Of a stretch of 45,757 nt of DNA, positions 25,539 through 25,992 are shown one piece after another. The stretch lies in the NCBI GenBank assembly GCA_034432015.1, contig DAOUCL010000123.1, positions 1 through 45,757 on the forward strand, read 5' to 3'. Position 1 is the first letter of the stretch; every line of letters starts with the position of its first letter. A program made the translations under genes and the position numbers. A model generated the notes under the pieces. It was not told the DNA's origin, ran no database searches, and was given only the letters and a program-made list of their open reading frames with translations. This DNA is from Dehalococcoidia bacterium (lineage in GTDB: Bacteria > Chloroflexota > Dehalococcoidia > JAUQQI01).

Positions 25539-25568
25539 GCTCACCCTCCTTTGTGGAATCGCCGGCTG

Positions 25569-25598
25569 ATTATAAAGCAGGGGATACTGGCGGGGCAA
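25569..25598 (-). promoter_or_regulatory. Putative proximal promoter for the MmgE/PrpD gene
   Basis: On the minus strand: TTGCCC (25598..25593), 18 nt spacer, TATAAT (25574..25569), about 30 nt upstream of the ATG. Confidence 0.4.
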
Positions 25599-25630
25599 AA
25601 AAGTAAATGGGTCAAGAGATTTGAGACAGG

Positions 25631-25957
25631 AGGCATCCCGTCCGGGTGCTCGGCCGGCTGGTTTCGCCGGCGCACCTCGCCCGGAAGGATGCTGGCGCCT
25701 TCGGCGCTATAAAGCTTACGGCGGGCTTAGCCGCCTGAACTAAAAAGTTCGGGGAGCCTTTCGGCTGCCGGGTCGCAACCTTGCGGCACCTCAAGCAACT
25801 GTGACCGCTACCCGACCCGTTTCCGGGTCGCAATTTCGGTCCCTGGTTGCTCGAGGTCGCCTTTCGGCCCGTTCCCGGTCAGCCTACTTGGCTCCCCGAA
25901 TCGCCGGGGTACCTGCTGGATTTTTAACCGGGTTCCTTTCGTACTACCGGCCCCGGC
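25631..25957 (-). ncRNA. Candidate structured RNA of unassigned family (independent ncRNA or long cis-regulatory leader)
   Basis: The transcript would start at about 25957, directly downstream of a near-consensus promoter. Nested helices:
- 25957-25951 / 25909-25903
- 25897-25890 / 25758-25751
- 25884-25874 / 25772-25763
- 25856-25846 / 25799-25789
- Terminal hairpin 25829-25814
- A rod hairpin of more than 20 bp, 25692-25633

Several GAAA loops and one GCAA loop appear only in the minus-strand reading. No credible ORF is present. Confidence 0.45.
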
Positions 25958-25963
25958 AACACT

Positions 25964-25992
25964 ACTTTAGCAAATCCGGCCCGGCTTGTCAA
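25964..25992 (-). promoter_or_regulatory. Near-consensus sigma70 promoter driving the structured RNA
   Basis: On the minus strand: TTGACA (25992..25987), exactly 17 nt spacer, TAAAGT (25969..25964). It lies 35 nt downstream of the rimI stop codon. Confidence 0.6.

Follow-up and report, generated by a model that had tools for sequence, protein, structure and literature searches.

A conserved, context-independent structured RNA with a sarcin-ricin look-alike hairpin in uncultured Chloroflexota

Locus and delimitation of the RNA

The window analyzed here is a 45,757-nt stretch from a Dehalococcoidia bacterium (Chloroflexota; contig DAOUCL010000123.1 of assembly GCA_034432015.1), in which rimI and a gene of the MmgE/PrpD family (PrpD-like gene) flank an intergenic region of 490 nt that carries a structured small RNA (sRNA), with all three on the minus strand. 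The PrpD-like protein of the window was also present on one identical JGI contig, and homologues at 80-86% identity were found on related contigs (clade A), where the gene order reads hypothetical, Ord-like, rimI, intergenic region, PrpD-like and GAF, and where the intergenic region measures ~345 nt. Alignment of these regions revealed that the promoter and the following ~215 nt (from ~25957 to GAACUUUUU at 25750-25742) are kept in the relatives, and that the -10 region and 5' untranslated region (UTR) of the PrpD-like gene are likewise conserved, an extra block separating them from the RNA in the window. Clade A comprises 8 distinct sequence variants, the window included; together with a distant homologue described below, 9 distinct sequences from two lineages were available. 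Across them, the boundaries of the RNA gene are shown by conservation and its structure by covariation, and the RNA proved independent of its genomic context and absent from Rfam. An initial annotation, made from the window alone, had described a promoter-driven, GNRA-rich, densely structured non-coding RNA of ~330 nt on the minus strand without an Rfam family. This description is supported in all respects except size: the conserved RNA spans only ~215 nt and ends at a U-run, the remaining ~140 nt being a strain-specific insertion. The features of the locus are compiled in Table 1.

Table 1. Features of the RNA locus and its flanks, in window coordinates
Feature	Position	Strand	Remarks
rimI	26599-26027	-	Upstream neighbor of the RNA; NCBIfam TIGR01575, 126.9 bits (cut-off 86.4)
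Conserved upstream element TGTGGAAAAC	26008..26017	-	25 nt upstream of the -35 hexamer; invariant in 8/8 clade-A variants
sRNA promoter	25964..25992	-	-35 TTGACA 25992-25987; 17-nt spacer with TGn extended -10; -10 TAAAGT 25969-25964; promoter scan (sigma-70-type)
Conserved structured sRNA	25742..25957	-	~216 nt; putative 5' end from the promoter, putative 3' end from the U-run
5' module	25897..25960	-	64 nt; P1, P2, sarcin-ricin look-alike hairpin and J18; only part common with the distant homologue
P1	25958-25951 / 25909-25902	-	Helix of the 5' module
P2	25950-25947 / 25931-25928	-	Helix of the 5' module
Sarcin-ricin look-alike hairpin UAGUAC-GAAA-GGAAC	25932..25946	-	Bulged-G/S-turn signature AGUA/GAA, C-G pair, GNRA loop
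J18 UUAAAAAUCCAGCAGGUA	25910..25927	-	Invariant strand between P2 and P1; predicted single-stranded
3' domain	25748..25900	-	Long bent rod closed by P3
P3	25900-25890 / 25758-25748	-	11-bp GC-rich helix closing the 3' domain
Inner elements of the 3' domain	25884-25874/25772-25763; 25856-25846/25799-25789; hairpin 25829-25814	-	
Second sarcin-ricin-type 7x6 internal loop	AAGUA 25885..25889 with GAAA 25762-25759	-	AGUA/GAA signature (PMC13085918)
U-run	25742..25746	-	Directly after P3; putative intrinsic-terminator tail and 3' end of the sRNA
Strain-specific insertion	25605..25741	-	137 nt; three small hairpins and a 60-nt rod; outside the conserved RNA
Promoter of the PrpD-like gene, TTGCCC-18-TATAAT	25569..25598	-	Promoter scan (sigma-70-type)
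MmgE/PrpD-family gene	24135..25538	-	Downstream neighbor of the RNA; Pfam PF03972 and PF19305

The minus-strand promoter proposed in the initial annotation (TTGACA-17-TAAAGT at 25992..25964) was recovered by a promoter scan and is kept as TTGACA-17-TAnAnT in 8/8 clade-A variants, with the letters of the spacer varying. An element upstream of it, TGTGGAAAAC, has a counterpart in the distant homologue, where locus L054 carries CTTGGAAATT an equal ~25 nt ahead of its own TTGACA; the pair could represent an UP-like element, a factor-binding site or the site of a shared regulator. The PrpD-like gene possesses a promoter of its own, in which TTGnnn, an exact 18-nt spacing and TATAAT recur in 8/8 variants while the spacer sequence diverges, and whose -35 hexamer starts in or overlaps the U-run of the sRNA in the relatives. 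A 10-mer, CCGGCGAUUC, occurs twice at the locus, once in the linker between P1 and P3 of the RNA (25907-25898) and once in the PrpD-like gene's 5' UTR (25565-25556); the RNA copy has turned into GACUC in half of the variants with the UTR copy unchanged, and the two show no covariation.

Fold and covariation of the RNA

The core of the RNA (25742-25958) folded with a z-score of -8.37, and 0 of 200 shuffled sequences folded as well; a 341-nt stretch of the region also folded far better than shuffled sequences (z = -5.75). The RNAalifold consensus of the 8 distinct clade sequences (alignment A5) contained 70 pairs with 97.9% of cells paired. Changes on both sides were found in 11 of the 70 pairs, against 3.7 ± 1.4 in column shuffles (0/500), and only 0-3 double-changed pairs remained when the partner columns were slid by 1-3 positions. 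The secondary structure has thus been kept by compensatory substitutions. The helices predicted in the initial annotation (25957-25951/25909-25903, 25897-25890/25758-25751, 25884-25874/25772-25763 and 25856-25846/25799-25789, and the hairpin 25829-25814) were all found exactly where it had placed them, and the covariation in the clade alignment indicates that they are under selection. The minus-strand reading was equally upheld, by the promoter and because several invariant G-U pairs would be A-C on the plus strand. Two mini-hairpins drawn at the junction fared less clearly: a continuous helix can be built from the same bases, with the GCC/GGC triplets joined across the junction around a GAAA/GNAA 4x4 loop, and the variable columns, which fit both, do not distinguish the two.

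All of the compensatory pairs of A5 (11/11) fall within the 3' domain, distributed over P3, the GGCUG.CCGG and 11-bp helices and the terminal hairpin. P3 is separated from the next helix by a 7x6 internal loop (CAAGUAG/CGAAAG; A5 columns 72-78 and 203-208, with AAGUA and GAAA in columns 73-77 and 204-207) with Watson-Crick flanks, which is invariant in A5 except for an A-to-C/G-to-A change in the variant L010. Directly after the closing helix, 4-6 U follow in 8/8 clade variants. A terminator scan did not call P3 plus the U-run as a terminator, because the enclosed "loop" is longer than 8 nt; nevertheless, we infer that termination occurs at this long-range helix and its U-run, which would place the ends of the transcript at ~25957 and ~25742. 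An anti-terminator hairpin, CCCCG-GCGAUU-CGGGG, can be drawn in clade A and cannot form in the distant homologue L018, and it was set aside as incidental.

A frozen 5' module shared with a distant homologue

We scanned JGI metagenomes with the pattern TAGTAC-N4-7-GGAAC-N4-6-TTAAAAATCC, which returned 7 loci, all of them true homologues; 6 belonged to the window clade, and the seventh, L018 (its sequence also being present in L054-L056), derives from an Anaerolineae-like Chloroflexota lineage, as judged from the source names of related proteins. The RNA of L018/L054 is ~336 nt long and has its own TTGACA-16-TATAAT promoter, and instead of lying between rimI and a PrpD-like gene it is divergent from an operon for an ECF sigma factor, an anti-sigma factor and an ABC transporter. 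Only its first 64 nt can be aligned with clade A. Within them, UAGUAC...GGAAC and UUAAAAAUCCAGCAGGUA are kept exactly and P1/P2 are kept through double substitutions: 5 of the 15 pairs of the 5' module, all in P1/P2, are changed on both sides between the clades (alignment A6), which was matched in 0 of 500 shuffles. A covariance model of the 5' module (R1) scored 95.7 bits on the window and 78.9 bits on L018/L054, and it detected one copy per locus in the loci examined. In clade A, the 5' module is 100% identical among relatives whose adjoining PrpD-like proteins share only 80-86% identity. Conservation thus marks the 64-nt 5' module as the predicted functional part of the RNA.

Beyond these 64 nt, the L018 RNA likewise contains a large GNRA-rich fold (z = -3.3), and in L054 its closing element is an 8-bp GC helix with UUCUUUUU directly after it. 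A model of the clade-A 3' domain (R2) scored only 3.4 bits on the 3' domain of L054; homology of the two 3' domains was therefore rejected, and the 3' domain is regarded as lineage-specific.

The 5' module is capped by a hairpin in which UAGUAC and GGAAC are invariant in 9/9 distinct sequences, whereas the loop between them varies (GAAA, GGUAA or GGAGA). In a cmscan of the core, the segment 25950-25928, CCGGUAGUACGAAAGGAACCCGG, was aligned to the archaeal large subunit (LSU) rRNA helix-95 consensus ccccUAGUACGAGAGGAACgggg with 21 of 23 positions identical, in a match that is weak by score and covers 23 nt only (7.3 bits, E = 3.8). The signature of helix 95, AGUA/GAA with Watson-Crick flanks and an adjoining C-G-closed tetraloop, is present at the sequence level, and neither a GAGA tetraloop nor the context of rRNA domain VI was found in the 9 distinct sequences. 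The GAGA bases (A2660, G2661 and A2662) of 23S rRNA are what elongation factors, ricin and sarcin recognize. Because of the non-GAGA loop and the 23-nt, 7.3-bit match, we treat the hairpin as a look-alike and not as an rRNA fragment; its sequence suggests that it adopts sarcin-ricin three-dimensional geometry with an S-turn. The statement of the initial annotation that the RNA matches no signature motif consequently needs correcting: it had missed the bulged-G signature, both in this hairpin and in the AAGUA/GAAA internal loop of the 3' domain, so that the RNA holds an AGUA/GAA internal loop in addition to the look-alike hairpin. Large RNAs make repeated use of sarcin-ricin loops, with examples in raiA, ROOL, RAGATH-18 and type B RNase P RNAs and four copies in Dictyoglomi-1 (PMC13085918), and the motif is for this reason a structural clue and no proof of rRNA mimicry.

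The strand J18 is identical in 9/9 distinct sequences of both clades, the search pattern having demanded only 10 of its 18 nt, and its mean unpaired probability was predicted to be 0.77 in clade A. At the boundary between J18 and P1 there is a self-complementary GGUACC (25910-25915 with 25909-25908), conserved in both clades, which could allow dimerization.

Wider searches added no further lineage, and on the sequences collected here the RNA is so far confined to uncultured Chloroflexota. No homologue was found near orthologues of the ECF sigma factor at 63-66% identity (L057-L066; regular expression and covariance model), the full RNA pattern had 0 matches in viral contigs, and blastn in its "distant" setting gave no match in plasmids and phages. 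A pattern run against a genome collection, which placed 5 N before TTAAAAATCC where the true spacer is 4 nt, returned 3 matches (two in Corynebacterium and one in Poribacteria) that are chance occurrences in coding DNA, and it is uninformative on the distribution of the RNA among genomes. The 18-mer of J18 had 31 matches in viral contigs, all in AT-rich phage coding genes (a VKNPAG word) and unrelated.

Several observations were made in passing on these loci. Three assemblies of the distant homologue (L018 1-30, L054 1-35 and L056 1-10) stop within ~31 nt downstream of its U-run; they may contain the same reads, or a repeat or strain break may lie there. In L061/L062, the long intergenic regions near the sigma orthologue (~1990-2110 and 3829-4000) contain a near-perfect hairpin of ~35 bp (GGGGTATTCTCGGCGGGTTGGCCGGTGCGTGGCC...) together with inverted repeats of the CGTGAAACG/CGTTTCACG type, all unrelated to the RNA. 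Elsewhere in the window, at 29954-34882, three successive genes for family-9 (heptosyltransferase-like) glycosyltransferases are followed by one for a PfkB-type sugar kinase, a lipopolysaccharide-core-like gene set that is unexpected on a Chloroflexota contig.

A strain-specific insertion at the 3' end

The extra block of the window is an insertion of 137 nt that is absent from 7/7 other variants, including the nearest, L017, which displays the empty site GAACTTTTTTGCCC. A 7-nt direct repeat, ACTTTTT, stands on either side of it (25748-25742 and 25604-25598). The insertion landed in the U-run, and the duplication restored both the tail of the RNA and the -35 hexamer of the PrpD-like gene. Its own fold is only modestly better than those of shuffled sequences (z = -2.1). 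Of the features expected of a miniature transposable element, the target-site duplication was found; terminal inverted repeats were not found on the 137 nt, nor was a second copy in the window or the related loci, and the insertion was without a match in plasmids, phages (blastn "distant") or viral contigs. The insertion could be a small mobile element with terminator tails as its target.

Three claims of the initial annotation concern this segment. The three small hairpins and the rod at 25692-25633 do exist in the sequence, but they lie in the insertion and hence outside the conserved RNA. The GCCUCCU proposed to pair with the ribosome-binding site of the downstream gene is also located there, and that pairing is a feature of one strain only. 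The repeat UUGCGACCCGG indeed occurs twice, but only in the strain of the window.

Comparison with known RNA families

We compared the region with Rfam 15 (4227 models, including RNase P, tmRNA, SRP, 6S, raiA, OLE, ROOL, GOLLD, HEARO, Dictyoglomi-1, Chloroflexi-1, cobalamin and T-box). At gathering thresholds there were 0 matches over the whole window, and at E <= 10 the 651 nt and 231 nt submitted gave matches at chance level only (hya at 15.1 bits versus 56.8 needed, and fragments of miRNA, snoRNA and CRE models). The cmscan that the initial annotation had proposed as a check has thereby been run, and its view that the RNA belongs to no known family holds. Candidate assignments to SRP domain IV, 6S RNA and T-box were dropped without Rfam matches. 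A likeness to the cobalamin riboswitch core (GGAA...GGU.AAAAUCC...GC.G.CCCC) was rejected, there being no Cobalamin or AdoCbl match at E <= 10. The L054 RNA (L054 1-480) likewise gave chance-level matches only, with no Rfam assignment at E <= 10. As far as sequence comparison can tell, the RNA is a new orphan structured RNA family without an Rfam match.

Among the orphan "ornate" sRNAs, the raiA motif RNA (RF03072) is the best analogue by way of working. It is single-copy and independently transcribed, with ~200 nt, its own promoter and varied gene contexts (PMC10861870), and its covarying fold is intricate and rich in invariant nucleotides, with an E-loop/sarcin-ricin motif and a peripheral domain that varies (PMC10861870; PMC13085918). 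The window RNA resembles it in being single-copy, in having its own promoter and varied contexts, and in combining a complex covarying fold with a sarcin-ricin motif. Membership in raiA is defined at its core by P1-P6, two covarying pseudoknots and ~51 conserved positions (PMC10861870); compared by model alone, the window RNA gave no RF03072 match at E <= 10. Whereas raiA consists of P1-P8 with two pseudoknots and typically lacks a terminator-like helix, the window RNA is built from a hairpin module and a rod and ends in such a helix, and whereas raiA occurs in Bacillota and Actinomycetota and is reportedly almost absent from Anaerolineae, the window RNA occurs in Chloroflexota. Dictyoglomi-1 (RF01703) is a further lineage-restricted orphan structured RNA with several sarcin-ricin motifs, four compared with two here (PMC13085918), but it belongs to another phylum and gave no cmscan match, its architecture having been compared via the Rfam model only.

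The likeness to helix 95 of 23S/28S rRNA consists in UAGUAC-(tetraloop)-GGAAC on a Watson-Crick stem, with the same bulged-G signature beside a C-G-closed GNRA-type loop; the window hairpin differs in that its loop is never the universal GAGA, its flanks are without rRNA homology, and it belongs to an sRNA of 215 nt that has a promoter of its own. With 6S RNA and protein-titrating sRNAs, the window RNA shares a presumably stand-alone, strongly promoted and structured nature, and display of a mimic or platform is shared as a proposed principle only; unlike 6S RNA, it lacks a rod with a central bubble and any Rfam 6S match. Transcription-terminating riboswitches also join a conserved 5' module to a variable 3' part and have a GC helix with a U-run behind it, but in the present case a separate promoter serves the downstream gene, the gene context varies, the "3' platform" of 150-275 nt is structurally conserved, and no riboswitch family matched.

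Interpretation and alternatives

Considered as a whole, the locus is read by us, with moderate confidence, as an independent gene for a stable, highly structured, trans-acting sRNA of ~215 nt that stands alone. The RNA would be transcribed from its own near-consensus promoter and would end where the GC-rich helix closing the 3' domain meets the U-run. Its P1/P2 stem would be capped by the sarcin-ricin-type hairpin, with UUAAAAAUCCAGCAGGUA displayed beside it as a large one-sided internal loop, and the 5' module would most likely serve as a trans-acting platform for specific recognition, with a protein as its most probable partner, resulting in the formation of a ribonucleoprotein or in titration. 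Folding, stability and termination would be the task of the GNRA-rich 3' domain, which varies between lineages. Specific binding of a protein by the 5' module is itself put forward as a tentative proposal. A number of points weigh against this reading. The ends and the abundance of the transcript are deduced from sequence only; an 11-bp stem around ~140 nt is an unusual intrinsic terminator, uncalled by the terminator scan; the gene neighborhood suggests no partner protein, and the two contexts share nothing; sarcin-ricin motifs are common in large RNAs, so that their presence alone is no sign of protein binding; and a base-pairing seed would just as typically be an invariant single strand. 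In addition, the shuffle control for covariation is not a probability for related sequences, and the model rests on 9 distinct sequences from two lineages.

In one alternative, a trans-acting base-pairing sRNA uses J18 as a seed for mRNAs with (part of) UACCUGCUGGAUUUUUAA, the remainder serving for protection and termination. The invariance of J18 in both clades and its predicted unpaired state agree with this, and the RNA's own promoter, terminator-like end and non-conserved genomic context are all typical of trans-acting sRNAs. We nonetheless consider it rather unlikely: the seed sits inside an internal loop beside an invariant non-Watson-Crick hairpin that would be needless for plain pairing, total invariance over 64 nt exceeds what a seed needs, and no convincing conserved target emerged in the 45-kb window and related loci, in a search of very low power whose 9-11-nt complements were common CTGCTG coding words on either strand. 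Complementarity of J18 to the 3' end of 16S rRNA was also considered and dropped, as it amounted only to the 7-mer GCUGGAU. The hairpin invites a different proposal, namely that it mimics helix 95 as a decoy of the sarcin-ricin loop (SRL) and titrates a factor that binds there, such as a translational GTPase, an SRL-cleaving toxin of the VapC RNase type or an SRL-contacting ribosomal protein. The fit of CCGGUAGUACGAAAGGAACCCGG to the helix-95 consensus (21/23, including the C-G pair and the adjacent tetraloop) and the invariance of UAGUAC/GGAAC in both clades speak for such a decoy, but its loop is GAAA, GGUAA or GGAGA and never GAGA, cmscan gave the match no more than 7.3 bits (E = 3.8), sarcin-ricin motifs are also recurrent parts of raiA, ROOL, Dictyoglomi-1 and type B RNase P RNAs (PMC13085918), and no toxin or translation-factor gene lies nearby, which leaves it improbable. 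The same doubt applies to the extended form in which the mimic and the invariant 18-nt strand together would constitute a trans-acting decoy or adaptor for a factor that docks on helix 95.

A role in cis had been raised in the initial annotation, as a giant regulatory leader of the PrpD operon, and can be worded as a leader or riboswitch of the PrpD-like/GAF operon with the 5' module as aptamer and P3 plus the U-run as regulated terminator. In every clade-A locus the RNA immediately precedes the PrpD-like gene and is encoded in the same direction, the succession of 5' module, variable 3' part and terminator-like end resembles an aptamer with its expression platform, and the 3' strand of P1 and the 5' strand of P3 can be drawn in clade A as the competing hairpin mentioned above. 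Such a role is nevertheless very improbable, because the PrpD-like gene keeps its own promoter and the distant homologue stands in an unrelated context: TTGnnn-18-TATAAT separates the U-run from the start codon of the PrpD-like gene in 8/8 variants and is kept in the window strain although the 137-nt insertion parts the RNA from it, and the homologue is on the strand opposite to the ECF sigma operon, with P1 and P3 unable to form the competing hairpin. A 3' domain of 150-275 nt that covaries is, moreover, far larger than known expression platforms, and no riboswitch family matched. Still less credit is given to a functional RNA of ~330 nt that would include the three small hairpins and the rod (25741-25633). 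The U-run of the window stops at an A after only 5 U, which might let some transcription continue into the insertion, and the insertion can fold, but these 137 nt are missing from all other variants, L017 included, a 7-nt duplication of the terminator tail encloses them, their z-score is only -2.1, and searches of the window and the related loci, of plasmids and phages and of viral contigs yielded no homologue. That the region encodes a small conserved protein is hardly conceivable. Its antisense frames are free of stops, as is usual for DNA of ~62% GC, but no conserved open reading frame was found in the clade variants, with stops in every sense frame; indels of 1 and 2 nt between variants shift the open antisense frames; the substitutions are pairwise compensatory and not periodic; gene callers called nothing here in related contigs; and a protein search with the sole called open reading frame, across the L056 RNA, found nothing.

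Significance

Large, covarying, single-copy bacterial RNAs to which no function has been assigned are rare (OLE, raiA, ROOL, GOLLD and Dictyoglomi-1), and they have repeatedly led to new biochemistry. The RNA described here adds an orphan family from poorly studied, uncultured Chloroflexota, one with a clear division of labor between a 64-nt module that is frozen across lineages and a large, replaceable 3' domain. The frozen module, composed of the sarcin-ricin look-alike and the 18-nt invariant strand, offers a small and defined bait for pull-down, probing and structure determination. If the hairpin were a functional mimic of helix 95, the RNA would represent a new type of rRNA-mimicking regulator, and if it served as an SRL decoy, it would imply RNA-based buffering or sensing of attack on, or occupancy of, the ribosomal GTPase center. 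Should there be no helix-95 mimicry, it would still be a well-delimited new RNA family fit for Rfam.

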